Notes: generated by a model not told the origin, from the sequence alone. A stretch of 64,000 bases of DNA from Thermoplasmatota archaeon (GCA_036626215.1 JAZKSG010000001.1:5634-69633); one strand, 5' to 3'. Positions 32,903-63,715 are shown, counted from the stretch's first letter. Program-made: numbers and translations.

Positions 32903-32979
32903 TAATGTTCTATACTTATGAAGAAAGGTTTTATATATGGTTTTTTCTTACCATGCTTCAACTAAGGAGTGAAGTTCAT

Positions 32980-39077: not shown

Positions 39078-39186
39078 AAAAATTGAATAGCAAAGAAAAT
39101 GTTGATATTTTTTAGGAAATTAATAGGTAGAAAAATTTATATTATATAGATAATTGTTTGAAAGGAAATCTGGTGGAATCATTAAA

Positions 39187-41397
39187 ATGAATAAAGAGGA
39201 AATTACTTTAAAAATATCAGAAGCATTTCAACAAGATGTAGGCTACGGCAGAGCACGTATCGATAATCAAACACGTGTAGAACTCGACTTATCTATAGGA
39301 GATGTCATAGAAATAGAAGGACAAAAAACTACCGCTGCAGTCGTATGGAGAGCACACCCAACCGACGAGGGAAAGAAAATACTGCGCATAGATAATCTTA
39401 CACGTAAAAACTGTGGTGCCGGACTAGGAGACAGAGTGAAAGTAAGAAAAGCAGACATAAACGAAGCTAAACAAGTAACTCTTGCACCTCTTATATCCAA
39501 AGGTCAACAGATACAATTTGGCAGAGGGATAGACAACCTAATCAAAAAAGGACTTCTTAAAAGACCTCTAACCAAAGGAGATAACGTCATAATCCCTGGT
39601 ATAGCCTTATTCGGGAGTTCGCTCCCTTTTGTCATAATCAACACCAACCCTAGCGGCATAGTATCAATTAACGAAAATACTAACATCAAAGTTAAAGAAG
39701 AAGCTGCCAAAACAGAGGATATGGAAGGACCAAGCGTAAGCTACGAAGACATCGGAGGTCTGAACGAAGAGATATCTAGAGTGCGTGAAATGATAGAGCT
39801 GCCTCTAAAACATCCAGAGTTGTTTGACCGACTGGGTATAGACCCGCCAAAAGGAGTTTTACTACATGGTCCTCCAGGAACAGGAAAAACACTGATAGCA
39901 AAGGCAGTGGCAAACGAATCCGGGGCAAACTTCTACACAATAAACGGCCCCGAAATCATGAGTAAATACTATGGGCAGAGTGAAGAAAATCTAAGGAAAA
40001 TTTTTGATGAGGCAGAAAAAAATGCGCCATCAATTGTTTTCATAGACGAAATCGATGCAATAGCCAGTAAAAGAGCTGAAACACACGGAGAAGTAGAAAA
40101 ACGTGTAGTGTCGCAACTTCTAACACTGATGGATGGGTTAAAAGGAAGAGGGAAAGTCATTGTTATAGGAGCCACAAACATACCAGATCAAGTAGACCCC
40201 GCACTTCGCCGGCCAGGCCGATTTGACCGAGAAATACGAATCGATGCACCAGATCGAGGAGGACGTAAAGAAATTCTACAAATACACACCCGTGGTATGC
40301 CAAAAGCAGAAAATATAGACCTTGAACAGCTAGCTGATATCACCTATGGATATGTAGGAGCAGACCTTGCAGCTCTTGCAAGAGAATCAGCGATGAATTC
40401 ACTTAGAAGATACCTACCCGAAATAAACCTAGACGAACCCATACCTGTAGACGTCCTAGAAAAAATGGAAGTCAACATGGATGATTTTAAAGAGGCACAT
40501 CGTGGTATCGAACCATCCGCGATGAGAGAATTTATTGTACAGGTACCAAAAGTATCGTGGGAAGACGTAGGTGGGTTAGAAAACGTTAAACAACAGTTGC
40601 GCGAAGCAGTAGAATGGCCGCTAACCAAAAAAGAAGTCTTTGAAAGAATGGGTATAGAAACACCAAGCGGAATTTTACTTTACGGCCCACCCGGAACTGG
40701 AAAAACATTACTAGCGAAAGCAGTGGCGCATGAATCAAAAGCTAATTTCATTTCAATAAAAGGACCAGAAGTTATGAGCAAATGGGTAGGCGAAAGTGAA
40801 AAAGCAGTAAGAGAATTATTCAAAAAAGCTCGACAGGTTGCACCAACCATAGTTTTCCTTGATGAACTAGACAGCATCGCTCCTCAGAGAGGCACCCACA
40901 CTGGCTCCCATGTCACAGATAGTGTGGTAAACCAACTGCTGACGAGTATCGACGGACTTGAAAGCATGGAAGGAGTCGTTGTAGTCGGTGCTACAAACAG
41001 ACCCGATATAATTGATCCCGGTCTGTTGAGACCTGGCCGTTTCGATAGACTTATATCTATTCCTTCACCAGATCGAAAAGCAAGATTAGAGATACTTAAA
41101 ATCCATACACGTCGTATGCCAATCGCAGATGACGTAGATCTAGAAGAATTAGCCGATAAAACAGAGAATTATTCAGGCGCAGACATTGAAGCATTATGCC
41201 GAGAGGCAGCAATGATAGCAATAAGACAGGACGAAAACGCTGATAAAGTAGAGATGAAACACTTTGATGAAGCCATGGAAAGTGTTAGAGCATCTATAAC
41301 CCCAGATATGAAAAACTTCTATGAGAAAATGTCTGGAGATCTTGGCAAGGGTGTAGCAAACAAAGACATAGAAAAAAGACAGTTAGATGTAGCCTAA
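39187..41397 (+). CDS. cdc48: CDC48/VCP-like AAA+ ATPase (two AAA domains)
   Basis: ~736 aa from ATG 39187. The tracked ORF starts 33 nt earlier at 39154. N-domain [22 protein letters not shown]1 and D2 Walker [10 protein letters not shown] twice. Walker B IVFIDEID / [11 protein letters not shown] motifs present. Confidence 0.9.
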
Positions 41398-42291: not shown

Positions 42292-43554
42292 TTGGCGAAT
42301 AAGAAAAACACTGTTAACAGTGACATATTTGGTAGACTACTAAAATCTAACGGTATTTTTATGAACCGTGAGGCAATGCGCCCATCTTACATGCCTGATG
42401 TTTTACCACATAGGGAAAAAGAAATAGATAACTTAGCTTCTGTTCTTGTACCTGCTCTAAGAGGAGAAACACCTTCAAATGTTTTCATATATGGTAAAAC
42501 TGGAACTGGAAAAACAGCAGTTACTAAGTTTCTAGGGAAAGAACTTTTGAAGAAAGGTGAAGAAACAGGAAAAGACGTTAATTTTATTTATATTAACTGT
42601 GAAGTGGTCGACACACAATATCGTCTTCTCCAGAACATAACTAATCATTTTATTGAAGAGTGGTCTGAAAGAATTCCTTTTACCGGTTGGCCAACTGACC
42701 AAGTTTTTGCTAAGCTTAAAAAGATGATTGAAAAAAACGGTGGAGTAGCTGTCATCATACTCGATGAAATTGACAAGTTAAAAGGAGATGAAGCTCTCTA
42801 TAATCTTTCACGTATCAACAGCGACCTACAAAACGCCAAAGTTTCTATTGTAGGAATTTCAAATGATCTTAAATTCACTGAGTTTCTTGATCCACGGGTA
42901 AAATCTAGTCTCGGTGAAGAAAATATGATTTTTCCACCCTATAACGCTGGAGAACTACAAGACATTCTGCATCAAAGGGTAGATATTGCGTTGAGAGATA
43001 ACGCAGTAAGCGATGATGTGATCCCTCTCTGTGCTGCTCTTGCTGCACAGGAACATGGTGATGCCCGTAGAGCATTAGACCTTCTTCGTATGAGTGCTGA
43101 ACTTGTGGAACGAAGTGATTCTCCTAAAGTTACAAAAAAATTTGTTCGACTAGCTCAAAACAAGATAGAAGTAGATCGTGTTATAGAAGTAGTTAGAACA
43201 CTTCCCACTCAATCTAAACTTATCCTATTCGCTATTTTGTTGCAAGAAAAGCACAACAAGAAGACTGAGTCAGCTGCTGCTATAACTACAGGAGAGGTCT
43301 ATAGCGTCTATAAAAACCTTTGTAAAAGAACTCGGACAGATTGTTTAACCCAGCGAAGGGTGGCAGATCTTATTTCTGAGTTGGATATGCTTGGCATAAT
43401 TACAGCAAGGGTAATATCTAAGGGTAGATATGGCCGGACACGTGAAATCAAGATGTCTTCTTCTTCTGAAGAAATCGCTGATATTCTTAAGGAAGATGAG
43501 GTTTTTGAAGATCTATCTAATTATAAATTCCATGGACAGGCAAGATTGATTTAA
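42292..43554 (+). CDS. orc1: Orc1/Cdc6 replication initiator
   Basis: 420 aa with a TTG start. Walker A YGKTGTGKTA. Walker B VIILDEID. Sensor and C-terminal winged-helix region present. Confidence 0.9.
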   Translation: MANKKNTVNSDIFGRLLKSNGIFMNREAMRPSYMPDVLPHREKEIDNLASVLVPALRGETPSNVFIYGKTGTGKTAVTKFLGKELLKKGEETGKDVNFIYINCEVVDTQYRLLQNITNHFIEEWSERIPFTGWPTDQVFAKLKKMIEKNGGVAVIILDEIDKLKGDEALYNLSRINSDLQNAKVSIVGISNDLKFTEFLDPRVKSSLGEENMIFPPYNAGELQDILHQRVDIALRDNAVSDDVIPLCAALAAQEHGDARRALDLLRMSAELVERSDSPKVTKKFVRLAQNKIEVDRVIEVVRTLPTQSKLILFAILLQEKHNKKTESAAAITTGEVYSVYKNLCKRTRTDCLTQRRVADLISELDMLGIITARVISKGRYGRTREIKMSSSSEEIADILKEDEVFEDLSNYKFHGQARLI

Positions 43555-44515: not shown

Positions 44516-46537
44516 TTATTGCGGGTATCCTCCAATTTTTAGGCTCGGGTCTCCAAGTAAAACCCATTGTTGAACTGTTTTAGCATGACCTGCAGGGACA
44601 TCTGACATGTCGAAAGTGTCAACATAGGTTTTTATTGATTCCATGAAAGCTTCTCCCAGTATTTCGTGGCCATGTTCACCATATTGTCTAAAGAATTCTA
44701 TAGTTATCCATCCGTCCCCACCATCAGTTGTGGATATTTTACCTATACGTCCATATCCTAATCCGGTGTTTCCTATAGTGGCTATAGCTCCCCCTTCTTT
44801 CAAACGTACAATATTCCAGCTGAAACATTCAGGTACAGGTGAACCATATGTCCACATCTGGTTGTCTTTTCCAAGCTGATAGTATAAGATGTGCATGATA
44901 GTTGGAATTAATGACACGTTGAACTGACTGTTATGGCATCCTCCTATAACCATCACAGGTAGCTTATCATCATTAGAAAGTTTATTCATTGGGTAATACG
45001 GGCGGTCAAGGAAGGATTTGAGTCTGTGTGGTTTTAGAGTTGTTACACGTAGACCTGTAACACTACCACCACTACGATCTCCTGGTACGCCGGGGTAATG
45101 GTCTGCCCAAACATTAGGGCTTCCATGTCCGGACATAAATACAAAACCATTTCCTTCGTTTAATGCCTCCATGACATCTTTTTCACCGGAGAAGCCGCCG
45201 TTTGAAGCCCAGAGTATATTCTTTTTGAATTCATCTGGCATATAGTATAATGCTCCTCCTCTACCCATCAGTTTTTTGTCGCCAGTTACCCATTCACCTT
45301 CATAGTACATTTCGGTGTTGTTTCTCCATTCGTTGAAAACCTTCTCACCGTCTTCGTTCTCTACCCATATATGCATATTTGTTGTGTTTCCATATGGTTT
45401 TGGGTCATATGATTTACCCCGTATATGCATTGTTTTGTTTTCGTAGCTGACGTTTGCCCAACCTGTAAATTCATTACAATAATCATTTGCTTGTGGGTCA
45501 AAAGATACATCATCTTTCCCTAAGACATCTCCATCTGATGGTGAAGTAATCTCTGCTATTGGTAGGGCAGGATATTGATTCACCTGTAGATTATCGTCAT
45601 GATTGAAAGTAACAGATGATTCTGATGAATGATTAACAGTTACTTTAACTATATCCAGATTTCCTTTTACTCCTTCTTTGTTGGTGCTTTGTCCATAAAT
45701 AGTATATTCACCAGATGGTAGACCACTACTGTTCCATTGGAAATCAAGGTCTTCTTGATCGAGGAAACCATCCCCGGATACCACTGTCATCTTTTTAAAC
45801 CATTCTTTTCCATACGTATTTTTCTCATAGTGAATTATTTTATCTACAACGTTTTTTACCTCTAGACGATTTCTGCATGCTAGACGACCAACTGCTATCT
45901 CTGGCGAGTAGTCTATGCCGCTGTCGTTTTTTTCAACACCAGGTTTATCATATACTGCAAAATAATCATCATTATTTGGATCCCAGCTGCTGAAAGTATC
46001 ATTTTCATCATATATATCTGCGTAGTATAAATCACTTATTACACCAGGGTCGTGAACATCTGAGGCAGATGCTGTAACAGTATTCAACGGATGCTTAGGG
46101 TTGTCATAAAAATTGGTATAACGAACAGGAACATACCAATGATCTGCTCCATAGTTTGCTGTGTCTCTAGGCCTAGCATATATTTTTGATTTTAAACCTC
46201 CAACCAGCAATAGGTATTTGATATTCCATTCATCATAGGCATGTTTCACAAAATATTTGATTTTCTCTGGTTTGTCTCGGCCGTCGTAGTTTTGATAGAT
46301 GTTGTCTGTCGTCTCCATAATTGTTTTTATGCCCATTTCTTCTTTATGATCAACTAACCTTTGTAATTGCCGGGTAAACGTTTTGTGGGTAATTATCAGC
46401 AAATCATATTCTGAATTTGTTGATGATTTTTCTATATTGTTACTCGTTGTTTCATTTGACTCTATTGCGAAAGCCCCAGCTGCGTTCAATAAAAACAGGC
46501 CTGCCACCAAAATAGGCAGTATTTTTTTTATATTCAT
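44516..46537 (-). CDS. Secreted clan-CD-like cysteine peptidase (gingipain C25 / clostripain C11-like) with C-terminal beta-rich extension
   Basis: 673 aa. Signal peptide MNIKKILPILVAGLFLLNAAGAFA. Candidate His-Gly / Cys dyad: FVFMSGHGSPNVW ... VMVIGGCHNSQFN, each preceded by a hydrophobic beta-strand, as in clan CD. Confidence 0.4.
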   Translation of the reverse strand: MNIKKILPILVAGLFLLNAAGAFAIESNETTSNNIEKSSTNSEYDLLIITHKTFTRQLQRLVDHKEEMGIKTIMETTDNIYQNYDGRDKPEKIKYFVKHAYDEWNIKYLLLVGGLKSKIYARPRDTANYGADHWYVPVRYTNFYDNPKHPLNTVTASASDVHDPGVISDLYYADIYDENDTFSSWDPNNDDYFAVYDKPGVEKNDSGIDYSPEIAVGRLACRNRLEVKNVVDKIIHYEKNTYGKEWFKKMTVVSGDGFLDQEDLDFQWNSSGLPSGEYTIYGQSTNKEGVKGNLDIVKVTVNHSSESSVTFNHDDNLQVNQYPALPIAEITSPSDGDVLGKDDVSFDPQANDYCNEFTGWANVSYENKTMHIRGKSYDPKPYGNTTNMHIWVENEDGEKVFNEWRNNTEMYYEGEWVTGDKKLMGRGGALYYMPDEFKKNILWASNGGFSGEKDVMEALNEGNGFVFMSGHGSPNVWADHYPGVPGDRSGGSVTGLRVTTLKPHRLKSFLDRPYYPMNKLSNDDKLPVMVIGGCHNSQFNVSLIPTIMHILYYQLGKDNQMWTYGSPVPECFSWNIVRLKEGGAIATIGNTGLGYGRIGKISTTDGGDGWITIEFFRQYGEHGHEILGEAFMESIKTYVDTFDMSDVPAGHAKTVQQWVLLGDPSLKIGGYPQ

Positions 46538-51061: not shown

Positions 51062-51325
51062 CTTAAACCATTATCCTCCATGACTAAAAAACTTATAGTT
51101 TCACTTAAAAAACTTGGAACATTAATTGTAAACCAAATTTTCTTATTAAAACCTATTTAATTCTACAAAAATTGATAAAAATATTAGTAAAAATGTAGAA
51201 CCAGCAGTAGTTTTTTTATACATTTTAACTAAAATGTTGCAATAAAGTTTTAATAAGGATGTTTTATAAGGAGACCACTGAAATTATGAAAATTGAAACC
51301 TATTATTGGGAGGTTTTATAAAAAA

Positions 51326-52672
51326 ATGAATGCAGAAAACGTCAAATGTTTTATGGATGAGTGCTGTAAGAGAAAGAACCCTGGTCAGGAGGAATTCCAT
51401 CAGGCGGTGCGTGAAGTTGTAGAGAGTATTATGCCTTTTGTGGAAAAACATCCTAAATATAAAGAACATAAAATCTTAGAAAGAATAATTGAACCTGAAA
51501 GAGTTATTATGTTCCGTGTTCCATGGCTTGATGATAATGGCGAACCGCAGATAAACCGTGGTTATCGAATCGAGATGAACAGTGCGATAGGTCCATATAA
51601 AGGAGGGTTACGTTTTCATCCAACTGTTAACCTTAGCATTTTAAAATTCCTTGCTTTCGAACAGATTTTCAAAAACAGTCTTACCACCCTCCCGATGGGT
51701 GGCGGAAAAGGCGGGTCTGATTTTAATCCTAAAGGAAAGTCTGATAACGAAGTTATGAAGTTCTGTCAGAGTTTTATGACTGAACTCTGCCGTCATATTG
51801 GTCCGGATACTGATGTCCCAGCAGGAGATATAGGAGTTGGTGGACGTGAAGTAGGATATCTTTTTGGTCAATACAAAAGAATTAGAAACGAGTTCACTGG
51901 TGTTCTAACAGGTAAAGGACTTGGATGGGGTGGAAGCCTTATACGTCCGGAAGCAACAGGATATGGTTCAACATATTTTGCTCAGGAAATGTTGAAAACG
52001 CGTAACGAGAAAATAAAAGGAAAAACTGTAACCATCTCTGGATCTGGAAACGTAGCACAACATACCTGTGAAAAAGTTTTACAGTTAGGTGGAAAAGTAG
52101 TCACTCTATCTGACTCCTCAGGCATGATACATGATCCAGAGGGAATTGATAGAGAGAAACTTGATTTCGTGATGGAGCTTAAAAATGTTAAACGTGGCCG
52201 GATAAGAGAATATGCTGAAGAGTTTGATGACGTTACTTATGAGGATGGAAAAAGACCTTGGAACATTCCTTGTGACATAGCGTTCCCATCAGCCACTCAA
52301 AACGAGATAAGTGAAGATGATGCCAAGGCACTGGTTGATAATGGATGCATATGCGTATCAGAAGGAGCTAACATGCCTACAGTACCAGAGGGAATAGACG
52401 TATTCTTAGAAAACAAAATCCTTTACGGCCCTGGAAAAGCAGCTAACGCAGGCGGCGTATCAGTTAGCGGTCTTGAAATGTCTCAGAACAGTTTACATAT
52501 GAATTGGTCTAGGGAAGAAGTAGATAACAAACTCCAGAACATCATGAAATCCATACATGAGACATGTCTAAAATATGGTAAAGAAGATGGTTTTTGCAAC
52601 TATGCAAAAGGGGCCAACATCGGTGGGTTCGTAAAAGTTGCAGATGCAATGATAGACCAAGGACTCGTCTAA
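51326..52672 (+). CDS. gdhA: Glutamate dehydrogenase, large bacterial (E. coli GdhA-like, NADP-type) family
   Basis: ~448 aa from ATG 51326 after gggagg. The tracked ORF 51293 is an extension. Contains PGQEEFHQAVREV and the catalytic Lys loop LPMGGGKGGSDFNPKGKSD. Rossmann GSGNVAQH. Confidence 0.9.
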   Translation: MNAENVKCFMDECCKRKNPGQEEFHQAVREVVESIMPFVEKHPKYKEHKILERIIEPERVIMFRVPWLDDNGEPQINRGYRIEMNSAIGPYKGGLRFHPTVNLSILKFLAFEQIFKNSLTTLPMGGGKGGSDFNPKGKSDNEVMKFCQSFMTELCRHIGPDTDVPAGDIGVGGREVGYLFGQYKRIRNEFTGVLTGKGLGWGGSLIRPEATGYGSTYFAQEMLKTRNEKIKGKTVTISGSGNVAQHTCEKVLQLGGKVVTLSDSSGMIHDPEGIDREKLDFVMELKNVKRGRIREYAEEFDDVTYEDGKRPWNIPCDIAFPSATQNEISEDDAKALVDNGCICVSEGANMPTVPEGIDVFLENKILYGPGKAANAGGVSVSGLEMSQNSLHMNWSREEVDNKLQNIMKSIHETCLKYGKEDGFCNYAKGANIGGFVKVADAMIDQGLV

Positions 52673-52745
52673 AAAAACATTTTTTTTCTCTTTTTTTATT
52701 TTTTTGTGAAAAGAATAAAATACAGCAATTTTTTTATTTGGTTTT

Positions 52746-53783
52746 ATGGAACTTTTGGAAGATGATCTAAATCTTTACCTTCTTCGCTACCTAGTTTCCG
52801 GTGAAGGGGTTTCAGTTAATATTCGTTCTGTAGCACGTGAGCTTGATATTCATCGTGCTACTGCCAAAAGAAGGATTAGTTTTTTGTATGATAAAAAAAT
52901 CCTTAACCCTCCCTTTTATTCTTTTCCCCAGCTCTATAAGGAGTACCCTTTACTTATCTTGGTTAAAGCAGATATGCCTAGAACTCAAGAGGTTAAAGAT
53001 TTTTTAAAAGATGATTCTCATGTTTTTGCTGCTTTTTCTTGTATGGAAGGGCCGTATAATACTTTTTTAATGGAGTTTTTTGAAGATTTAAAATCATATC
53101 ATTCTTGGCGTGAACAGATTGTGGCGGATAAAAAAATTCCTACTAGGCATAATCGAGCGGCTGCTTCTGCCAATATTTTCAGTAATAATCTAACGTTCAA
53201 GTATGAACCTAATTGTTTTGTAAAAGAACTGAGGAAGGAATTTGATAGAGATGGTTTTGTTCAGATAGGTGATGTAAGGCTTGGATATGAAAAGTTTAGT
53301 ATTATGTATGATTTGACCCAGGGTAAACATCTTCAGAGAAATGATTCTTTTTTATCAAGAGAGTTGGGTGTGAATAGAAAAACAATCAAACATCGTGTTG
53401 GTACATTGCTTGATGCAGGTGTTATAGATCCTCCTAAATGTTTTTTTCCAAACTTGTTTATCCCTCCGACATATAACTTGGTTGTTTCTTTGATTGAGGT
53501 AAAATCAGGGGTTGATGATGTTAAAAAGTATATTATGGATAATAATAATATTTCTCGTGCGCAGGAAGCTAGCACTGGGCGGTATAACTTTTTGATTTTT
53601 TCTGCTTTTAAAACCATTGAACATTTTTTTGATACGGGTCGAGAACTAATTTCACGTTTTCCCAACGCCATAGGAGATATTTCTAATACTATTTTGTCTT
53701 CAAAGATGATTCATACTATCAAACCTCAGAAACTTTCTCTTGGTTGGATTGAGAGAAAGCTTTGGGAATTGAAACAAAAATAG
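52746..53783 (+). CDS. Tandem-duplicated Lrp/AsnC-like transcription regulator (two HTH + RAM-like units)
   Basis: 345 aa. Unit 1 HTH IRSVARELDIHRATAKRRISFL plus LLILVKADMP. Unit 2 HTH LSRELGVNRKTIKHRVGTLLDAGVI plus VVSLIEVKSG. Confidence 0.45.
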   Translation: MELLEDDLNLYLLRYLVSGEGVSVNIRSVARELDIHRATAKRRISFLYDKKILNPPFYSFPQLYKEYPLLILVKADMPRTQEVKDFLKDDSHVFAAFSCMEGPYNTFLMEFFEDLKSYHSWREQIVADKKIPTRHNRAAASANIFSNNLTFKYEPNCFVKELRKEFDRDGFVQIGDVRLGYEKFSIMYDLTQGKHLQRNDSFLSRELGVNRKTIKHRVGTLLDAGVIDPPKCFFPNLFIPPTYNLVVSLIEVKSGVDDVKKYIMDNNNISRAQEASTGRYNFLIFSAFKTIEHFFDTGRELISRFPNAIGDISNTILSSKMIHTIKPQKLSLGWIERKLWELKQK

Positions 53784-53924: not shown

Positions 53925-55214
53925 ATGGTAGAAGAAGGATACAACCCATTTAAAATGGCACAAAAACAATTTGATAGAGTCGCAGAGAAACTAGAATTAG
54001 ACGACTCAGTAAGAGAATTTTTGAGAGAACCAATGAGAGAATATCATTTTTCTATACCTGTCAAGATGGATGATGGCAAAGTCAAAACTTTTAAAGGATT
54101 CAGAGTACAGCATAACGACGCCCGCGGCCCTTGTAAAGGAGGGATAAGATTTCACCCTCAGGAAACAATTGACACGGTTAGGGCATTGGCTATGTGGATG
54201 ACTTGGAAATGTGCAGTAATAGACATCCCTCTTGGAGGTGGGAAAGGAGGAGTTATATGTGATCCACATGATCTTTCGGAAGATGAACAGGAAAAACTGT
54301 GCAGAGGGTGGATCCGTCAGTTGTCACAAGACATTGGCCCAGTAAGAGATGTTCCAGCACCGGATGTAATGACCAATAGCCAACATATGCTTTGGATGAT
54401 GGATGAATATCAAGCAATCCATGGAGGACAATACCAGCCTGGAGTTATAACGGGTAAACCCGTTGCACAAGGCGGGTCTCTTGGAAGAAAAGAAGCTACC
54501 GGCTATGGGTTAGTATACATTTTAAGAGAATGTTTGAAGGAAATGGATATCGACATAAACAAGGCAACTGCATCAATACAGGGTTTTGGAAATGTGGCAC
54601 AACATGCCGCAGAATTATTCATAGATTTAGGGGGAACTGTAGTTTCCGTTTCTTGTTGGAATCAAAAAGACAGCAAGCCCTATTCCTTTTATAAAGAAGA
54701 CGGAATCGATTTGAAAGAATTATTAAAAATCACAGATCATTTCGGCACAATCGATAAAAAAGAAGCGGAAAAACTTGGGTATGAAGTTCTTCCGGGAGAA
54801 GACTGGATTAAACATGATGTAGATATTCTTATACCCGCTGCTTTGGAAAACGCTATAACAAAAGACAATGTGGACAAAATACAGCCAAGTGTAAAACTTA
54901 TCATATCTGGTGCAAACGGCCCTATAACTCCTGAAGCAGACGACACATTAAATGAGAAAGAAGTAGTAGTTATACCAGATTTTTTAGCTAACGCTGGAGG
55001 TGTAGTATGTAGTTATTTCGAACAAGTACAGAGCAATCAAAACTATTACTGGCCTAAAGAAGAAGTACTAGGAAAACTTGATAATAAAATGACAGATGCG
55101 TTCTACAAAGTATGGGAGTTATCTCAACGTAGAAAAATAAGAGTAAGCGATGCAGCTTATATGATCGCTATTTCAAGAGTGGCAGAATCCTGTCAGATTA
55201 GAGGATGGGTCTAA
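53925..55214 (+). CDS. gdhA: Glutamate dehydrogenase (archaeal ~420-aa type), paralog 2
   Basis: 429 aa. GFRVQHNDARGPCKGGIRFHP, IPLGGGKGGV, Rossmann QGFGNVAQHAA. Confidence 0.9.
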   Translation: MVEEGYNPFKMAQKQFDRVAEKLELDDSVREFLREPMREYHFSIPVKMDDGKVKTFKGFRVQHNDARGPCKGGIRFHPQETIDTVRALAMWMTWKCAVIDIPLGGGKGGVICDPHDLSEDEQEKLCRGWIRQLSQDIGPVRDVPAPDVMTNSQHMLWMMDEYQAIHGGQYQPGVITGKPVAQGGSLGRKEATGYGLVYILRECLKEMDIDINKATASIQGFGNVAQHAAELFIDLGGTVVSVSCWNQKDSKPYSFYKEDGIDLKELLKITDHFGTIDKKEAEKLGYEVLPGEDWIKHDVDILIPAALENAITKDNVDKIQPSVKLIISGANGPITPEADDTLNEKEVVVIPDFLANAGGVVCSYFEQVQSNQNYYWPKEEVLGKLDNKMTDAFYKVWELSQRRKIRVSDAAYMIAISRVAESCQIRGWV

Positions 55215-55235: not shown

Positions 55236-58229
55236 ATGATAGAAGAAAATAAAGAAGAAAAAATTTTATCAAAAATTGAGGAGATTACAGGGATAAAACC
55301 CCATAAGGAAGAAGAGAGATATACAGATAAAACAGAAAAACTTAGAAAATACGAAATCGACAGCGTTCTAATCGTTTCTTCTTCCTATGATTATTTTCTT
55401 TTGGAAGAAGAGGGAAGATTAAGCAATCTCTTCTCGGAACTATATTCTCCTTCTGGAAAAAACCCTCCCAGTGTTTCACATGTCGAAACAGAGGAGAGTG
55501 CTCTTAAAAAACTCTCTGACAAAACCTTTGATTTAACAATTATTTTCAACAAACCTGAAGATATAGGGGTTCTCGATTTAGCTAAAAAGATTAGAGACCA
55601 TTCTAAATCCAAGATAGTTATATTAAACAACGATATCGAAAAAATCAGAAAAATATCAGAAGCAGATGAAGACAATCTAATCACAGAGTTTTTTACTTGG
55701 AATGGCGATGGGAAAGTAGTTTTAGGGATAGTTCAGCTAATAGAAGACTCAGTTAACTTAGAGAAAATCAAAAAAGGAGAAAAATGTAGATGCATTCTTC
55801 TAATAGAAGACTCGATACAACATTATTCTAACTATATAACATTGATATATGATGAAATTAGAGAATTTTTAGATGAGATAATAGATAAGAATTTAACTGA
55901 TAAACAAAAAGACATCCGTTTTGATAGGAGGCCTTTTGTTTTTCATGCTAAAGATCTTGACACATCTATCCATTTTTTTGAAAAATTCAAAGATGATTTA
56001 GTTTGTATAATAACTGACAACCATTTAGGCGATGCCGAAAATAGGGTTGAAAACGCAGGTGTAGAGTTTACCAAAAAAATAATTGATGAGGGCTATGATA
56101 TTCCTATAGCTATTCAGTCTTCGGAACCGATCCATGATTGTGATTTCCCAAGTAAAAAAATACAGTTTCTCTCTAAAAACTCAGCAAATCTAATCGGGAA
56201 ATTGAAAAGATTTATAGAGAAAAGCATAGAGCCAAAGAAAATCAGATATAAACCCAATGACGGCGAAGTTAAAGTTATGGACGATATATCTGATTTGCAG
56301 GATTTTTTACTGTTTGAAGATAGTTATTTGGTTGTAAATCTCGCTAAAAAAAATGTTTTTTCTAATTGGTTCAACTCTTTGGGTGAATTTGAGCTATCTG
56401 AAAAGTTTCGTTTCTTTGAGAACGGTTTTGAAAAACCTGATAAATTACAGAAAAATTTATTGGATGTTATAGAAAACTACAGATATTCTTTGAATCAGGT
56501 AGCTATTAAAAAATTTGAACGACGGGAAGATGAAGAAAAAACTAAGATTAGATGTATAGGCGATGGTGCATTGGGCGGTAAAGCTCGTGGTTTGGCTTTC
56601 CTCTCTAAAATTTTTTCTAAATATGTATCTGAAGATATGCTTCCTGGTCTTCGTGTTACGATTCCTCGTAGTATTGTTTTATCTACTGATGTTTTTGATT
56701 CTTTTTTAGAACGCAATGATTTGCTTGAAGAACCTCTCTTTGAGTTGTCTGATGAACGCATAGCTTCTAAGTTTATGAAATCAGACCTTCCTGCTATCGT
56801 CCTTGGTGATTTACGTTCTTTTGTTAGAAACACCAGGAAACCTTTGATCATCCGGTCGTCAGGCGTTCTCGAGGATTCTTTATTGCAGCCTTTTGCAGGT
56901 GTTTATGCCTCTATGCTTCTTCCAAATGAATCTTGGGAGACAGATCTTCGTTTCCAGGAGGCATGTAACGCCATTAAATATGTTTATGCTTCTACATATT
57001 TTGAAAGAGCTCGTAACTATGTCAGATCTACTCCTAAAAGTATAACCGATGAGAAGATGGGGGTGCTTATACAGGAGGTTGTAGGTAAAAAGTATGGAAC
57101 CTATTTTTATCCGGATGTTTCTGGGGTAGCAAAATCTTATAATTATTACCCCTCCGGTGATTGCAAACCAGAGGATGGAATTGTTTATCTGGCTTTGGGG
57201 TTAGGAAAATCAATTGTTGAAGGCGGGAGTAGTTTTTGTTTTTGCCCTGAAAAACCTAAAAAACCTTTGGCAGGAACGCCAAAAGATTTCATGAGATATT
57301 CTCAAAGAGATTTTTATGCCTTGAATCTTAGATCTGTTTATCGGATAGTAAACAAAAACGAAGAAAGTTCCTTAGATAAATTAGATCTTGATGTCGCAAA
57401 AAAACACGGTGTTTTAGATAAACTTGTATCTACCTATGATCCTCGAGACGACCGACTCTATCCAGGATATTCAAATGAGGGTCATCCTGTCTTAGATTTC
57501 AGTCCTATTGTAAAATATAATGAGATCCCTCTTTCCAAAGCAATGAAACTTTTACTAAATGTCTGCGAAATCATTTTAGGTTATCCTGTAGAGATAGAGT
57601 TTGCAGTTAACTTATTTAAAGAAAAAGACAAACCCGCAGAGCTAACAATTCTACAGATTAGAAACATGCGCCCCCCTGGAGAATCACCAACATTATCAAA
57701 TAAAGATTTAAAATCCAACGATGTTTTGTGTTATAGTAAACACGCTTTGGGTAATGGAGTCATAAAAAATATTAAAGACATAGTATTTGTTAAATCAGAA
57801 AAATATGATATGTCGAATTCAATGCAGGTTGTAGACCAAGTCAAAAAAATTAACAGAAAACTCATGGATGAGGACAAACCTTACATCCTTGCTGGACCCG
57901 GGCGTTGGGGGTCAGCAGACCAATGGCTTGGAATACCTGTAGCGTGGGGAGATATAGCAGGCGCAAAAGTAATAATAGAGACGCCTTTTGAAAGAAGATC
58001 TATAGATTTCTCCCAAGGGTCACACTTTTTCCATGATATGCTTTCCTCTAACGTTGCATATCTAAAAACTGAAAAAGGAGAAGGAAACCTTGATTGGAAT
58101 CTGCTAAATTCGTTTCAGACTGTTGACGAAATAGGGGAGATAAAACATGTAAAAACCCCCTATCCTTTAGAGGTCGTAGTTGATGGAAAAAATGGAAAAG
58201 CAGTTATTAAAAAAGATAAAGAAAAATAA
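55236..58229 (+). CDS. Multidomain protein: N-terminal receiver-like repeats + PEP synthase N-terminal-type ATP-grasp (PPDK_N) domain + conserved C-terminal module
   Basis: 997 aa. The core aligns by eye with the ppsA N-domain in this window: IGDGALGGKARGLAFL ~ VGGKNASLGEM; LIIRSSGVLEDS ~ VAVRSSATAEDL; LIQEVVG...DVSGVAKS; IEFAV...LQIRNMR ~ DIEWAK...VQARPE. It lacks the GGRTCHAAI swivel motif and instead has GPGRWGS...GDI...SQGSHFFHD. The N-terminal 430 aa contain two CheY-like alpha/beta stretches (DSVLIVSSSYD..., CRCILLIEDS...). Confidence 0.55.
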   Translation: MIEENKEEKILSKIEEITGIKPHKEEERYTDKTEKLRKYEIDSVLIVSSSYDYFLLEEEGRLSNLFSELYSPSGKNPPSVSHVETEESALKKLSDKTFDLTIIFNKPEDIGVLDLAKKIRDHSKSKIVILNNDIEKIRKISEADEDNLITEFFTWNGDGKVVLGIVQLIEDSVNLEKIKKGEKCRCILLIEDSIQHYSNYITLIYDEIREFLDEIIDKNLTDKQKDIRFDRRPFVFHAKDLDTSIHFFEKFKDDLVCIITDNHLGDAENRVENAGVEFTKKIIDEGYDIPIAIQSSEPIHDCDFPSKKIQFLSKNSANLIGKLKRFIEKSIEPKKIRYKPNDGEVKVMDDISDLQDFLLFEDSYLVVNLAKKNVFSNWFNSLGEFELSEKFRFFENGFEKPDKLQKNLLDVIENYRYSLNQVAIKKFERREDEEKTKIRCIGDGALGGKARGLAFLSKIFSKYVSEDMLPGLRVTIPRSIVLSTDVFDSFLERNDLLEEPLFELSDERIASKFMKSDLPAIVLGDLRSFVRNTRKPLIIRSSGVLEDSLLQPFAGVYASMLLPNESWETDLRFQEACNAIKYVYASTYFERARNYVRSTPKSITDEKMGVLIQEVVGKKYGTYFYPDVSGVAKSYNYYPSGDCKPEDGIVYLALGLGKSIVEGGSSFCFCPEKPKKPLAGTPKDFMRYSQRDFYALNLRSVYRIVNKNEESSLDKLDLDVAKKHGVLDKLVSTYDPRDDRLYPGYSNEGHPVLDFSPIVKYNEIPLSKAMKLLLNVCEIILGYPVEIEFAVNLFKEKDKPAELTILQIRNMRPPGESPTLSNKDLKSNDVLCYSKHALGNGVIKNIKDIVFVKSEKYDMSNSMQVVDQVKKINRKLMDEDKPYILAGPGRWGSADQWLGIPVAWGDIAGAKVIIETPFERRSIDFSQGSHFFHDMLSSNVAYLKTEKGEGNLDWNLLNSFQTVDEIGEIKHVKTPYPLEVVVDGKNGKAVIKKDKEK

Positions 58230-58249
58230 TGAAGGCGGACAATTAAAAA

Positions 58250-61200
58250 ATGAATGATCGAAATAAAGAATTTGAAAACATAAAGAACAAACTTGATAAA
58301 CAAGTCCCTGAAGCGTTGCAAGAGAGAGTAAAAGAACTTAATTGCCTGTATGGTCTTACTAATATAGTTAAAGATAAATCTCTGTCTAAAGATGAGGCTT
58401 TGCAGAAAATAGTTGATTTAATTCCTCCTTCTTGGCAGTATCCAGACATAACTTGTGCGCGAATAAAATTAAAAGATGAGGGAGTGTATAAAACAGATAA
58501 TTTCAGGGAGACGAAATGGAGTCAAATCAGCAATATTTTTTCTGACGACAAAAAAATTGGTACACTTGAAGTATATTATCTTGAAGAAAAACCAAAGTTA
58601 GATGAAGGTCCTTTCCTTAAGGAGGAAAGATGGTTAATTGATGCTATAGCAGACTTAATTGGAAAATATATTGGTGAAATACAGATAAAGGAAGAATTGA
58701 AGCAGCATAAGGAAAAACTTGACCAGGTTGAAAAAACAGGACAAAAATTTGAAGAAGCCGAGATCACAGACAAGAAGCATGATTGGGAGGTAATTATTGA
58801 TCTTCTGATTAAAACCGACCCTCGTATGCTTCTTCGTATAACCCGGAAGATGGTATATCATCTGTATCGTTTTGAAAATGAAAAAATCAACAATCTTTTA
58901 AGTACTGTTTGTCCAGTGGATAGAGATTCTTCTTCAACCCAATGGTGCGGTATTAACATGCCTAACCCCCGTCAAAATATAGAATCTCTCAAAAGAGTCC
59001 AACAGCAGGTTTTTGAATTAGCAAAAGAATGTTTTACTCCAGAAGAACTCTCTCGGCTATTCCATTACTATATTAAACAAGATAAAGTACGTCCATTGTT
59101 GCTGACATCTCAGAAACACGGAGTCCCTCTTGTTGAAATAACAAATGAGCTTATTCGTTTCTTTGACAAAGCTGATGAGGAAATTGAGATTTCACCTGAA
59201 GATCGCCTGAGTATTACCACGGCGTTAATCAGGCGTTTTTTTACGGATAGACTTGATTATGTTAATGTCGCTAAACAGTTTATCAATGTTGAAGATTTTA
59301 TTCCTCTTCTGAAACATGTGGTGGGCCCTGCGCAGGGAGCTGGCAAGTTAGGAGGTAAAACCTCTGGAGTATATTTGGCTGAGAAAATTATAAAAGAGGA
59401 AATGGAAACGAAGGATGTGCTTAGCGACATTGCCTTCCCGCGTAGTTGGTATCTCACCTCTGATGCAATACATAATTTTATACATTATAACGATCTCGAT
59501 GAAGTATTTCATCACAAATATTTGGATCCAGAAGAAATACGACAAGAGCAGGTTTTTTTAGAGCAAATCTTTAAAAACGCTGTTTTTCCACCAGAAATCG
59601 TGGAAAACCTAAGAAAAATCATCCATGATATCGACGATAAACCTATAATCGTCCGCTCATCAAGTTTACTAGAAGATAGCTTCGGAGCGGCTTTCAGTGG
59701 AAAATATAAAAGTCTGTTTGTCCCTAACACAGGGTCAGAAGAAGAAAGACTTTATGCTTTAATGGATGCAATAGCTGAGGTTTATGCCTCTACTTTTGGC
59801 CCTGATCCTATAGAGTATCGACGGGAGAGAGGCTTACTTGATTTCAGTGAAGAAATGGGAGTTCTCATACAGGAAGTAGTTGGTATCAAGGTCGGCAAGT
59901 ATTATATGCCGATGTTTGGAGGAGTAGCTTTCAGCAGAAACGAATTCCGATGGTCTCCACGGATAAGAAGAGAAGACGGCGTAATTCGTTTGGTACCTGG
60001 TCTTGGAACCAGAGCTGTAGACCGGGTAAGTAATGATTACCCTATCCTGGTTTCACCGAGCAGACCCGAGCTACAGGTAAATACTTTGGTTGAAGAAAGA
60101 ATCCGTTACTCACCTCATTATATGGACGTTATTAATCTTGAATCTGGAGCAATAGAAACGATAGATGCAATAGAGTTATTCAAACAACACCCAGACGAAT
60201 TTCCGAAATTAAATCAGATTATTTCAATAAATAAAGATGGGCGCTTAGCTAAACCATCTGGCCTGTTGCTCAATCCTGAAGAAGAGGATATGGTGGTAAC
60301 ATTCTCAAATTTATTTGATAAAACAGATTTTCTTGAAAAAATAGAGACACTGCTTGATATATTAGAGGAAAACATTGGCACACCTGTCGATGTAGAATTT
60401 GCATCTGATGGAGAAAAACTTTATTTCCTTCAATGTAGACCCCAGAGTCAATCTTTGGATATCGAACGTGTACCTATACCTAAAAACATTCCAGATAAGA
60501 GAAAACTGTTCTCCTCAGATAAATATGTTACAACTGCTCAAATAGAAAACATCGAATACATTGTATATGTGAAACCGGAGGGATATGCAAATCTACAAGA
60601 TAGGGAGGAAATGCAAAAGATTGCGACTATTGTAAACCGTCTAAACGCTAAACTCCCTAAGAGAAAATTTATTTTAATGGGTCCTGGACGTTGGGGTAGC
60701 CGTGGCGACATTAAATTGGGTGTTCCAGTTAAATATGGAGACATAAACAACACTTCTCTCTTGGTAGAAGTTGCAAGAGAAAAAGGAGATTATACACCAG
60801 AACTTTCCTTTGGAACACATTTCTTCCAGGATCTCGTAGAAGCAGATATAAAATATCTGCCATTATATCCCGATCATCCTAACAACTTGTTCAACGAAAA
60901 ATTGTTATTAGATGCAGAGAACAAACTTTCGGAGATAACTCCATCTTTCAAAGATTATGAAGAGGTAGTAAAAATAGTTAAAGTATCTGACCTAGTTGAT
61001 GGCGGAACTTTGTCTGTGATTATGGATGGAGAAGCCGGAAAGGCATTAGCCTTCCTTAAACCTCCTGATCACTGGAGTTGGAGGATGCAACAAGTAAAAA
61101 AAATAGCGGATGATCTAGACCCTGAAGTTTACTCTATAGATTCATTATATCTGGTTGGGAGTACTAAAGATGGTAGCGCTGGTCCAGGTAGTGACATAGA

Positions 61201-61444
61201 TTTAATCGTACATTTCTCAGGAAACGAAGAACAAAAAGAGAAACTTTTAGCTTGGTTTGACAAATGGAATAAAAAACTAGAAAAAGAAAACCAAGAAAGA
61301 ACAGGTATGAAAACCAAAGATATGTTAGATGTACACATAATTACAGATGAAGACATAAAAAACAAAACTTCTTGGGCGACACATATAACATCAAGATACA
61401 AATCAGTTAGAGAGATACCAATAAAAAAGGATGAAAAGAATTAA
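58250..61444 (+). CDS. Multidomain protein: N-terminal sensor-like domain + PPDK_N ATP-grasp domain + conserved C-terminal module + Pol-beta-type nucleotidyltransferase domain
   Basis: 1064 aa. Paralog of 55236-58229 across the ATP-grasp (GAGKLGGKTSGVYLA, IIVRSSSLLEDSFGAAFSG, VLIQEVVG, VEFASDGEKLYFLQCRP) and the C-module (GPGRWGSRGDIKLGVPVKYGDI...SFGTHFFQD). C-terminus YLVGSTKDGSAGPGSDIDLIVHF matches the GS-x(9-13)-DxD nucleotidyltransferase signature. Confidence 0.55.
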   Translation: MNDRNKEFENIKNKLDKQVPEALQERVKELNCLYGLTNIVKDKSLSKDEALQKIVDLIPPSWQYPDITCARIKLKDEGVYKTDNFRETKWSQISNIFSDDKKIGTLEVYYLEEKPKLDEGPFLKEERWLIDAIADLIGKYIGEIQIKEELKQHKEKLDQVEKTGQKFEEAEITDKKHDWEVIIDLLIKTDPRMLLRITRKMVYHLYRFENEKINNLLSTVCPVDRDSSSTQWCGINMPNPRQNIESLKRVQQQVFELAKECFTPEELSRLFHYYIKQDKVRPLLLTSQKHGVPLVEITNELIRFFDKADEEIEISPEDRLSITTALIRRFFTDRLDYVNVAKQFINVEDFIPLLKHVVGPAQGAGKLGGKTSGVYLAEKIIKEEMETKDVLSDIAFPRSWYLTSDAIHNFIHYNDLDEVFHHKYLDPEEIRQEQVFLEQIFKNAVFPPEIVENLRKIIHDIDDKPIIVRSSSLLEDSFGAAFSGKYKSLFVPNTGSEEERLYALMDAIAEVYASTFGPDPIEYRRERGLLDFSEEMGVLIQEVVGIKVGKYYMPMFGGVAFSRNEFRWSPRIRREDGVIRLVPGLGTRAVDRVSNDYPILVSPSRPELQVNTLVEERIRYSPHYMDVINLESGAIETIDAIELFKQHPDEFPKLNQIISINKDGRLAKPSGLLLNPEEEDMVVTFSNLFDKTDFLEKIETLLDILEENIGTPVDVEFASDGEKLYFLQCRPQSQSLDIERVPIPKNIPDKRKLFSSDKYVTTAQIENIEYIVYVKPEGYANLQDREEMQKIATIVNRLNAKLPKRKFILMGPGRWGSRGDIKLGVPVKYGDINNTSLLVEVAREKGDYTPELSFGTHFFQDLVEADIKYLPLYPDHPNNLFNEKLLLDAENKLSEITPSFKDYEEVVKIVKVSDLVDGGTLSVIMDGEAGKALAFLKPPDHWSWRMQQVKKIADDLDPEVYSIDSLYLVGSTKDGSAGPGSDIDLIVHFSGNEEQKEKLLAWFDKWNKKLEKENQERTGMKTKDMLDVHIITDEDIKNKTSWATHITSRYKSVREIPIKKDEKN

Positions 61445-62295
61445 AGAGCTTTCTCCACCCTTTTTGCATCCTTGATATCGTCTGTATCGAACATTATAAA
61501 ACAGGCTTTACTTTTTTTGCATGCTCCGTTGAAAGAAAAAGCATCACCAATTCTCTGTTTCCACCTTCCAGTCATATCGGTTGATTCATGGACATGTCCA
61601 TGTAGTGTTAGAAGAGGCTGTTTTTTCTTGATAAAACGTTTTATGGCTATACTTCCAACGTGTACATCAACTGGTGCATGATCTACTTTTTTACCATCTA
61701 GATCTGCTCTATCAAGATAGGTTTGATAGGGAGGTGAATGAAATAAGAATATTGTTTTGTCTAACGGAGAGTTTTGAGAAATTTTCTCTAAATCTTTTTT
61801 TATAGTTGAATATCTTTTTTTATCAGAGGAAATCGACACAGTCCGTTTTCCCTCCTCAGGAGAAATAGCACCTACATCTACATGGCGCGACACATCATAT
61901 TTCTCCCAGTCTTTCAGACGGAAAGGAGTAGGAGGCACAAAAGAATAACCAGTTATATACAAACCATTGTGTCTAACCGTTTTTTCATTAACGTATTCTA
62001 TTAAACCATCATTATGAGCTTTTTTGAATACTTTTTCATATATGCGAGGGTCATCATTCCCCATAATCAAAAAAAATTTTATCCTGTTTTTACAGTTTTT
62101 TTTACATTCTCTAATTTTATCAAAAATATGTTTCTCTATAAACTCTTCCATGGTCATATTTTTAGGAGGTTTTAGAGGTAGAAGGTCGCCACCTAAAAAA
62201 ACACCATCTGGAGCATTTTTTATTATTTCTTGAAAAAAAACATTATATTTTTTTTGCTTTCCATGAAAATCTGTTGCAAATATGTATTTCAACAA
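61441..62295 (-). CDS. Calcineurin-like metallophosphoesterase
   Basis: 284 aa. ATDFHG, GGDLL, IMGNDD (GNHD-like), HSPP, and GHVHE motifs in canonical order. Its stop overlaps the stop of the convergent upstream gene (shared TTAA). Confidence 0.7.
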   Translation of the reverse strand: MLKYIFATDFHGKQKKYNVFFQEIIKNAPDGVFLGGDLLPLKPPKNMTMEEFIEKHIFDKIRECKKNCKNRIKFFLIMGNDDPRIYEKVFKKAHNDGLIEYVNEKTVRHNGLYITGYSFVPPTPFRLKDWEKYDVSRHVDVGAISPEEGKRTVSISSDKKRYSTIKKDLEKISQNSPLDKTIFLFHSPPYQTYLDRADLDGKKVDHAPVDVHVGSIAIKRFIKKKQPLLTLHGHVHESTDMTGRWKQRIGDAFSFNGACKKSKACFIMFDTDDIKDAKRVEKAL

Positions 62296-62434: not shown

Positions 62435-63715
62435 TTGTATGGGGGAATTAGTATAGCGCAGACTTTTTATGAAAGTGTTTTAGAGCAGATTGACTCAATC
62501 GCTGAGAGAACGGATTTAGATAAAGGCATACATAAAAAAATCCGTCAACCTGAACGCGAGTTGACAGTTAGCATCCCGATTGAAACCGATGAAGGCGAAA
62601 TAGATGTTTTCACAGGTTACAGGGTACAGCATTCTAGTGCACGTGGGCCTTGTAAAGGAGGGATACGTTATCATCAGGATACTAACTTGGATGAAGTTAA
62701 AGCTTTAGCTACGTTGATGTCTTTGAAATGTGCTGTTGCAAATGTTCCTTATGGCGGAGCAAAAGGCGGTGTTACATGTGATCCTTCAAATTTATCAAAA
62801 AAAGAGATTCAACGTTTAACTAAACGTTATGCTACTGCGATATTGCCCATCATTGGTCCTCGTGCTGATATTCCGGCACCAGATGTTAACACTAATGCTG
62901 AAACCATGGGTTGGATTATGGATGCTATAAGTATGCATAGAGGCTCTACAGTTCTGGATATTGTTACAGGCAAACCTATTGATTTAGGAGGGTCTCTTGG
63001 CCGTAATGAGGCCACAGGGCGAGGCGTCATGCTTAACACCATGGAGATGTTAGATAAATTAAATAAAAACCCTAAGGAAACGAGTGTTGCTGTTCAAGGT
63101 TTTGGTAACGTAGGATCTATTGGTTCTGCTTTGCTTTATGGTGAAGACTGTCAAATCAATGCGGTTAGCGACGTCTCTGGCGGGTTGCACAATCCTAATG
63201 GTTTAGATATCCCTGATTTAATCAGATACATTAATTCTCAGCCTCGTCTGCCTCTATTAAAAAACTATGATCATGGTAAAAATGATGAGTTTATTTCTAA
63301 TGAGGAGCTTTTAGAGTTGGATGTGGATGTTTTGATACCTGCAGCTCTTGAAAACCAGATTCATAGCGATAATGCAGACGATATAAAAGCAGATATCATT
63401 GTTGAAGGTGCAAATGGGCCAGTTACTAAACAAGCTGATGAGATACTAAATGAAAAAGATGTTTATGTAGTTCCAGATATACTTGCTAACAGTGGAGGAG
63501 TAATAGTATCCTATTTTGAATGGGTACAAAGCATACAGTCATTTTTCTGGGATATCGACGAGGTAAACAAAAACCTTAGAGATATTATGTTAAAAAGTTT
63601 TGCAGATGTATGGAGCATCTCTCAAAAAGAAAAATCGTCTCTAAGAGATGCAGCTTTTATCGATGCCATACAGAAAATTTCGAGAGCTATAGAACTCAGA
63701 GGTATTTTTCCATAA
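62435..63715 (+). CDS. gdhA: Glutamate dehydrogenase, paralog 3
   Basis: 426 aa. GYRVQHSSARGPCKGGIRYH, VPYGGAKGGV, QGFGNVGS. Confidence 0.9.
   Translation: MYGGISIAQTFYESVLEQIDSIAERTDLDKGIHKKIRQPERELTVSIPIETDEGEIDVFTGYRVQHSSARGPCKGGIRYHQDTNLDEVKALATLMSLKCAVANVPYGGAKGGVTCDPSNLSKKEIQRLTKRYATAILPIIGPRADIPAPDVNTNAETMGWIMDAISMHRGSTVLDIVTGKPIDLGGSLGRNEATGRGVMLNTMEMLDKLNKNPKETSVAVQGFGNVGSIGSALLYGEDCQINAVSDVSGGLHNPNGLDIPDLIRYINSQPRLPLLKNYDHGKNDEFISNEELLELDVDVLIPAALENQIHSDNADDIKADIIVEGANGPVTKQADEILNEKDVYVVPDILANSGGVIVSYFEWVQSIQSFFWDIDEVNKNLRDIMLKSFADVWSISQKEKSSLRDAAFIDAIQKISRAIELRGIFP

Follow-up and report, generated by a model that had tools for sequence, protein, structure and literature searches.

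What do two adjacent genes do that combine the ATP-grasp domain of phosphoenolpyruvate (PEP) synthase with signalling-type domains and lie directly behind a gene for glutamate dehydrogenase (GDH)? The question is raised by open reading frames (ORFs) A and B in a stretch of 64,000 nucleotides (nt) from a Thermoplasmatota archaeon (GCA_036626215.1 JAZKSG010000001.1:5634-69633), which we call the window. A preliminary description of this locus had suggested a regulatory system for nitrogen or central carbon metabolism. Because the pair sits directly behind a dedicated GDH gene in many archaea and bacteria, we conclude that A and B are probably an undescribed switch on the co-encoded GDH. The earlier suggestion stands in that the proteins look like signalling proteins, and synteny supports it strongly; the link, however, is to GDH and not to glnA, and for chemistry and target we can only infer. 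In the following sections, we describe the gene cassette, the domains of the two proteins and the mechanism that they may serve.

A gene cassette behind glutamate dehydrogenase

Both ORFs, of 997 and 1064 amino acids (aa), are present as first described and are separated by 20 nt (Table 1). Their products match, at 100% identity, the proteins P0121 (A) and P0001 (B) encoded on one 74-kb contig of a Candidatus Thermoplasmatota metagenome-assembled genome. The GDH gene of the cassette ends 21 nt upstream of A, and its translation shows the motifs K(GG), GGGKGG and PAPD. On average this GDH is 63% identical to 48 cassette-linked GDHs from elsewhere, as against 32-40% to the two other GDH paralogs of the window, and by sequence comparison it forms an ortholog group of its own. 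The gene order GDH, A-type gene, B and, in part of the loci, a metallophosphoesterase gene is conserved across archaeal and bacterial loci, and the cassette occurs in Thermoplasmatota, Cloacimonadota, Ignavibacteria, Zixibacteria and Calditrichia. Named relatives of the proteins come from these same groups and from Bacteroidales, and their annotations are all generic.

To survey the pair and its neighbours, which the preliminary description had proposed for archaeal genomes, we used about 80 metagenome loci, fetched from more than 585 existing ones by the motifs of the C-terminal module that A and B share (see below). Of these loci, 34 have enough flanking sequence, and in 30 of them a co-directional GDH gene lies upstream of B at a distance of 6 kb or less. 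An A-type gene is found between GDH and B, directly upstream of B, in 26/46 loci, and B carries a nucleotidyltransferase (NTase) domain in 63/76. Since GDH genes are few in any one genome, the chance expectation of such an adjacency is low, by our estimate less than 1%.

Individual loci illustrate the arrangement. An archaeal ortholog (69% identical, on a 295-kb contig) shows the order GDH - A - B - Metallophos, with an extra GDH-plus-paralog unit upstream of the cassette and GltD-like genes downstream of it. On a bacterial contig of 1.5 Mb, which also carries Por_Secre_tail genes, a single strand encodes the GDH (427 aa), a minimal A-type protein of 579 aa, B (1053 aa) and a Metallophos protein (290 aa), in genes whose stops and starts overlap. 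In addition, A-type and B-type units are fused in gene order in proteins of 1617-1655 aa (P0416-P0423 and P0241-P0243), some of them named Ignavibacteriae, which join a minimal A-type unit to a full B-type unit. The linkage to GDH is tight and ancient, and we regard it as highly probable that the pair is functionally linked to GDH or, more generally, to the glutamate/2-oxoglutarate node.

Table 1. Coordinates of the cassette, of the domains of A and B and of neighbouring genes, counted from the first nucleotide of the window.
Feature	Position	Strand	Length or residues	Remarks
Putative winged helix-turn-helix (wHTH)-like protein	52746..53783	+	345 aa	stretches at residues 9-53 and 183-228; weak Csa3/CasR, LysM and HTH_24 matches
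Cassette glutamate dehydrogenase	53925..55214	+	429 aa	ELFV_dehydrog_N + ELFV_dehydrog (Pfam)
ORF A	55236..58229	+	997 aa	pseudo-receiver + receiver + linker + PPDK_N ATP-grasp + C-module
A N1 pseudo-receiver	55362..55676	+	43-147
A N2 receiver domain	55788..56189	+	185-318	D261 codon 56016-56018
A N3 linker region	56241..56555	+	336-440	weakly DUF5752-like in homologs
A ATP-grasp (PPDK_N)	56568..57671	+	445-812	Pfam
A C-module	57678..58226	+	815-997	GPGRWGS 887-893; invariant His930 codon 58023-58025
ORF B	58250..61444	+	1064 aa	GAF + helical domain + PPDK_N + C-module + NTase
B N1 GAF sensor domain	58310..58729	+	21-160	followed by a long helix, 124-162
B N2 all-alpha domain	58781..59317	+	178-356	AlphaFold2 secondary structure
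B ATP-grasp (PPDK_N)	59348..60469	+	367-740	Pfam, PpsA alignment
B C-module	60470..61054	+	741-935	GPGRWGS 811-817; invariant His857 codon 60818-60820
B minimal Pol-beta/MNT-type NTase	61055..61441	+		GS...SDIDL, D982/D984; Pfam NTP_transf_2
Metallophosphoesterase	61441..62295	-	284 aa	convergent; Pfam Metallophos E 1e-10

Several variants of the arrangement were seen. Four loci are without GDH, and in one of them its place upstream is taken by genes of the glutamate-synthase type: at L069 (2057-7546), an NTase-less B-like gene follows genes for a NuoF/GltD-like fusion, a 2Fe-2S/4Fe-4S protein and a Glu_synthase-domain protein, which represent another enzyme of the glutamate/2-oxoglutarate node. 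A third paralog follows directly after a GDH1-type gene in locus L001 (1414-4443) and also in L047, L063, L078 and L080; it has 1009 aa with a receiver-type N-terminus, a weak DUF5752 match, PPDK_N and the module, and extra units of a GDH gene followed by a receiver-type A gene occur in relatives. The window is without this third paralog, having only a gap of 73 nt at 52672-52746. Its other GDH paralogs (51293-52672 and 62435-63715) flank the cassette; the GDH1 type, in copies that are 57-77% identical, lies near the cassette in at least eight other loci, and the cassette GDH shares 40% identity with GDH3.

Dikinase core and C-terminal module

The preliminary description had assigned to both proteins an ATP-grasp domain like that of PpsA. 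Pfam indeed detects PPDK_N in A (E 4.8e-31) and in B (E 6.9e-56), and two blocks of the B core, RSS..ED (E 2e-9) and EFA..LQxR (E 3e-4), align with the window's own PpsA. A442-990 and B363-933 can be aligned over about 570 residues with 30% identity (E 4e-52), which makes them paralogs. In each family, 117-120 of about 120 members contain the motifs GGK, RSS..ED, E[FW]A and Q.R, counted as regular-expression matches that are not position-specific.

The likeness to PEP synthase and pyruvate phosphate dikinase (PPDK) thus consists of a homologous PPDK_N ATP-grasp domain with all nucleotide- and Mg-binding motifs and a small domain right behind it. The difference lies in what is missing, as had been pointed out for the swivel motif and the TIM barrel: neither PF00391 (PEP-utilizers) nor PF02896 (the TIM barrel) matches A or B in Pfam at E<=0.1, and the canonical GGxTSHAA motif is absent from both proteins, whereas the window's PpsA (32980-35373) matches PPDK_N, PF00391 and PF02896. 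Because the PEP-utilizers domain and the TIM barrel are both absent, A and B are not PEP-forming enzymes; an identity as PEP synthase or PPDK (EC 2.7.9.x) is ruled out, two of the three defining domains having failed. As to PpsA itself, its ORF is listed from 32845 to 35373, with the PpsA-like sequence opening at the ATG at 32980 (MKKVFNIW...), and the 45 codons ahead of this ATG look like read-through of a mechanical ORF call.

Behind the ATP-grasp domain, both proteins carry a common module. It had been described as a novel segment of about 120 aa; the module is real, far beyond chance, but it spans about 190 aa and, given its weak swivelling fold, is not an orphan novelty. Among 149 representatives, clustered at 50% identity, the motifs GxGRWG[ST] and G[STA]HFF are near-invariant. 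When searched against 1.84 billion representatives, the profile of the module finds 2,090 clusters at 50% identity, 1,528 of them at E<=1e-10. PPDK_N directly precedes the module in every protein checked, and the smallest module proteins, of about 570 aa, consist of PPDK_N and the module and nothing else. Pfam at E<=10 gives nothing for the isolated module or for 23 members, and the profile retrieves chance matches only from the PDB sequences. The module is therefore a domain family absent from Pfam, defined by two near-invariant motifs.

Structure prediction, which had been proposed as a check together with a Foldseek search, yields a confident AlphaFold2 model (predicted local distance difference test, pLDDT, 88.8) with a weak match to the swivelling beta/beta/alpha fold, a class that includes phosphohistidine carrier domains; the Foldseek search gave no significant match. 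In position, the module stands where PEP synthase carries its phosphohistidine domain. Because of this weak swivelling fold at that site, we interpret A and B as truncated dikinases. The invariant histidine (H857 in B, H930 in A) is placed at a helix N-terminus, behind a strand and a G-[ST] pair, like the catalytic histidine of GGxTSHAA, and the module is closed by an 'hVhhDGxxG' strand resembling that of PEP-utilizers, in an alignment of only E 0.065. Judging from the model, the module probably corresponds to the swivel domain in a very divergent form and is not an unrelated novelty, and we lean slightly towards its histidine being a phospho-carrier, that is, towards a divergent phosphohistidine swivel domain.

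The same module could also be taken for a metal-dependent hydrolase-like domain of the cyclase or kynurenine-formamidase type, in a non-covalent regulator or energy sensor whose ATP-grasp domain only binds ATP or AMP; GDH would then be controlled allosterically, or a ligand would be hydrolysed. We consider this clearly unlikely: every studied PPDK_N domain operates through a histidine carrier, the module occupies the exact site of the carrier domain of PEP synthase and ends in the strand just mentioned, and all catalytic residues of the ATP-grasp domain are kept, which mere binding would not need.

Input domains, nucleotidyltransferase and metallophosphoesterase

The two receiver-like segments that had been noticed at the N-terminus of A were both found, and they differ in their acceptor residues. 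For N1, hhalign gives Spo0F (E 1.4e-4) and CheY (E 6e-4), and Response_reg matches fall at the N1 position in A homologs; SS stands in place of the acidic pair and F104 in place of the acceptor aspartate (129/148 sequences). N2 keeps the conserved receiver residues E191, D192, D261, S295/S296 and K314 in 133-144 of 148 sequences; its hhalign match to CheY is weak (E 0.015), and Response_reg is matched at residues 235-302 in the homologs P0200 and P0212, homologs reaching 28-33.5 bits (P0212 33.5) against a cutoff of 30.2. In A of the window, PF00072 scores only 14.4 bits and is located in N1. Weak PF19027 matches to N3 occur in the homologs P0200, P0207, P0212 and P0265.

The N-terminus of B, which had been called sensor-like, has a GAF fold. 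This GAF unit is modular, since it is also fused ahead of some A-type proteins. The all-alpha domain N2 is present in all B-type proteins and conserved among their representatives; it has no match in Pfam or the PDB and no significant relation to A N3 (E 0.011). Searches of the PDB sequences with full A, full B, the profile of the B N-terminus and the NTase returned nothing useful.

These input domains bear on the main rival explanation, a role as small-molecule dikinases. A and B, either singly or as the two components of one enzyme, as in HpeHI, would phosphorylate and/or nucleotidylate a metabolite made or used by GDH, B N2 or the module would bind the acceptor, and the product would be the substrate of the phosphoesterase. 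Small-molecule kinases make up most of the characterised PPDK_N relatives that lack the PEP barrel, and among them HpeHI, with its dikinase function split over two proteins, offers a two-component example (PMC12167813). Weak NCBIfam matches to RPH, PigC and RedH, an operon linkage to an enzyme gene that is typical of pathways, and the active-site-like set of invariant polar residues in the module point in the same direction. However, the minimal A-type protein consists of the ATP-grasp domain and the module only, with no acceptor-binding domain; no similarity to RIF-binding or HpeH-type acceptor domains was found; and inputs of the GAF, receiver and pseudo-receiver kinds are characteristic of signalling proteins. 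We also know of no fitting phosphorylated derivative of glutamate or 2-oxoglutarate. On balance, we rate the small-molecule role as rather improbable, and moderately favour a regulatory over a metabolic role in general.

At the C-terminus of B, the predicted Pol-beta-superfamily NTase is confirmed by an NTP_transf_2 match at residues 949-1010 (E 2.5e-8, 34.6 bits against a cutoff of 21). Its GS...SDIDL motif occurs in 120/120 archaeal and 114/119 bacterial B proteins, 234/239 in all, and its sequence makes a catalytic function plausible. The domain is of the minimal MNT type, about 120 aa long, and resembles MntA-type minimal NTases in size and motif.

The metallophosphoesterase gene that converges on B overlaps its stop by 4 nt. 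The product matches PF00149 with 42.7 bits (cutoff 21.5), and DxH, GD, GNDD and GHxH can be read in its translation. Such a gene lies 2.5-3 kb or less downstream of B in 25-26 loci. It was seen beside 25/46 NTase-bearing B genes as against 0/12 NTase-less ones (Fisher p 5.7e-4, in a test that ignores phylogeny), and the earlier idea that it encodes a demodifying enzyme gains support from this restriction. That NTase and phosphoesterase act as a cycle is a possibility we put at somewhat below even.

The MNT-type domain might instead mark a defence or toxin-antitoxin-like element. PADLOC relates the NTase and the phosphoesterase to PDC-S09 and PDC-S10 and gives an MntA match; because these matches to candidate systems are only weak, we reject the defence reading. 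No HEPN partner is present here, unlike in MntA-type systems, the linkage to a housekeeping GDH gene stays stable from one phylum to another, and the sequences are about 70% conserved in Thermoplasmatota, with no mobile-element features. The probability left to it is negligible.

A further explanation takes the preliminary comparison with GlnE and GlnD literally: the NTase of B would adenylylate or uridylylate glutamine synthetase or a PII-like protein encoded elsewhere, with glnA as the partner gene. NTase-based control of glutamine synthetase is a classical paradigm, and such cycles likewise pair a Pol-beta-fold NTase with a removing activity on an enzyme of nitrogen metabolism. The neighbours first reported are indeed there, namely glnA, three ELFV (Glu-type) dehydrogenases and a Metallophos protein, and glnA lies 4 kb upstream in the window. 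However, it is adjacent in only 1/80 metagenome loci (L008), whereas GDH is nearly constant. Because its adjacency is not conserved across loci, glnA is rejected as a functional partner. The resemblance to GlnE and GlnD itself does not hold as homology: Pfam and NCBIfam give no match to either family, nor GlnE repeats or GlnD HD and ACT domains, the NTase is of the minimal type described above, and removal would here be the task of a calcineurin-type phosphoesterase. We regard this explanation as very improbable.

Other features of the window are mentioned for completeness. A homolog of the wHTH-like protein occupies the same site upstream of the cassette GDH in the archaeal loci L001 and L005, and this protein may be a transcription factor of the cluster. 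Two antisense ORFs, at 56495-56851 (- strand, 118 aa) within A and at 53333-53671 (- strand, 112 aa) within the wHTH gene, have low-complexity, Ser/Lys-rich translations and are most likely non-genes. Elsewhere, the window encodes Cdc48 (39154-41397), Cdc6/Orc1 (42292-43554) and a gingipain-type Peptidase_C25 (44516-46537). The gap of about 900 nt ahead of Cdc6/Orc1 holds no ORF of at least 120 aa and could be a replication origin, and the peptidase fits a protein-degrading lifestyle.

Proposed mechanism and its significance

From the domain composition, the preserved catalytic motifs, the cassette with its phyletic spread, the A-B fusions and the co-occurrence of NTase and phosphoesterase, we infer a mechanism in which the module histidine is phosphorylated, GDH is the direct target, a ligand is sensed, and a writer and an eraser are at work. 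Signals would enter through the GAF domain of B and, in this archaeal lineage, also through the receiver of A (D261). By analogy with every studied PPDK_N enzyme, the ATP-grasp domain would use ATP to phosphorylate or pyrophosphorylate the module histidine (A H930, B H857). Once phosphorylated, the proteins may affect the co-encoded GDH through phosphotransfer or through binding that depends on their state, as has been suggested for VadK and methylcitrate synthase. The minimal NTase of B would add a nucleotide to a protein target, which may be GDH or A and B themselves, and the convergent metallophosphoesterase would remove it. In this form, as sensor-controlled, VadK-like truncated dikinases that regulate GDH together with an NTase/phosphodiesterase pair, the proposal is tentative, and we give it a little less than an even chance.

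A more far-reaching version describes a new type of dikinase-driven signalling, in which a PPDK-type ATP-grasp/His-swivel unit replaces the classical histidine kinase and passes phosphate to D261 of A and/or to GDH, while the NTase and the phosphodiesterase run a nucleotidylation cycle. The result would be a two-layer covalent GDH switch in anaerobic amino-acid-degrading archaea and FCB-group bacteria. We consider this version distinctly unlikely.

Several observations weigh against the mechanism or against the swivel reading of the module. The module gives nothing significant in Foldseek against the PDB (best E 0.036), in hhalign against the window's PpsA, or in hhalign against six PEP-utilizers sequences from PDB alignments, where only the terminal DG strand aligns (E 0.065), and its invariant polar residues exceed what a passive carrier needs. 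Operon linkage to an enzyme is equally compatible with a metabolic role, and some lineages have B without an A-type gene. The metallophosphoesterase is found in less than half of the loci, usually on the opposite strand, and the co-occurrence statistics take no account of phylogeny. No characterised family member was found, and the literature on the domain combination, on DUF5752 and on GDH plus dikinase yielded no description of the cassette.

Among known systems, VadK (Rv1127c) of Mycobacterium tuberculosis is the closest precedent by analogy, set beside A and B by its description and not by its sequence. It is a shortened PPDK that retains the ATP-grasp and His domains but not the barrel; it autophosphorylates His422, binds enzymes belonging to the methylcitrate cycle and tunes their flux (PMC13400623). 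A and B share with it the ATP-grasp domain and the lack of the PEP/pyruvate barrel, and their His-bearing module may correspond to its His domain, as suggested by the weak fold match and by the invariant histidine at a helix N-terminus. The logic that we propose for A, B and GDH is also the same, in that VadK binds and acts on enzymes of a nearby pathway instead of making PEP. In contrast, VadK is a single protein of about 490 aa with a recognisable PPDK phosphohistidine domain and has no sensor domains or NTase, whereas A and B form a paralogous pair with GAF and receiver inputs, a divergent module without a Pfam family, an NTase and an associated phosphoesterase, and occur in other phyla.

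Other relatives share single features. Rifampin phosphotransferase, PigC/RedH and HpeHI/MarK likewise have an ATP-grasp domain and a His swivel and no PEP barrel, but these small-molecule dikinases have dedicated acceptor-binding and canonical swivel domains, no fusion to GAF, receiver or NTase domains and no link to GDH. Enzyme I-Ntr (PtsP) resembles B in its fusion of GAF to a phospho-His enzyme and in the logic of nitrogen signalling; however, it is charged by PEP through the barrel and passes the phosphate to NPr, whereas B has an ATP-grasp domain and no evident HPr-like partner.

The dedicated GDH, two truncated dikinases equipped with sensor domains, an NTase and a phosphoesterase within one cassette make the control of GDH directly testable, and the A-B fusion proteins can be used as a single chain for experiments. 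GDH stands at the junction of carbon and nitrogen metabolism and is central to the protein-degrading anaerobes that carry the cassette, namely sediment Thermoplasmatota, Cloacimonadota, Ignavibacteria, Zixibacteria and Calditrichia; to our knowledge, no post-translational control of GDH has been described in these groups. Because VadK is the only PPDK-derived regulatory kinase described so far, a second widespread lineage would extend the class.

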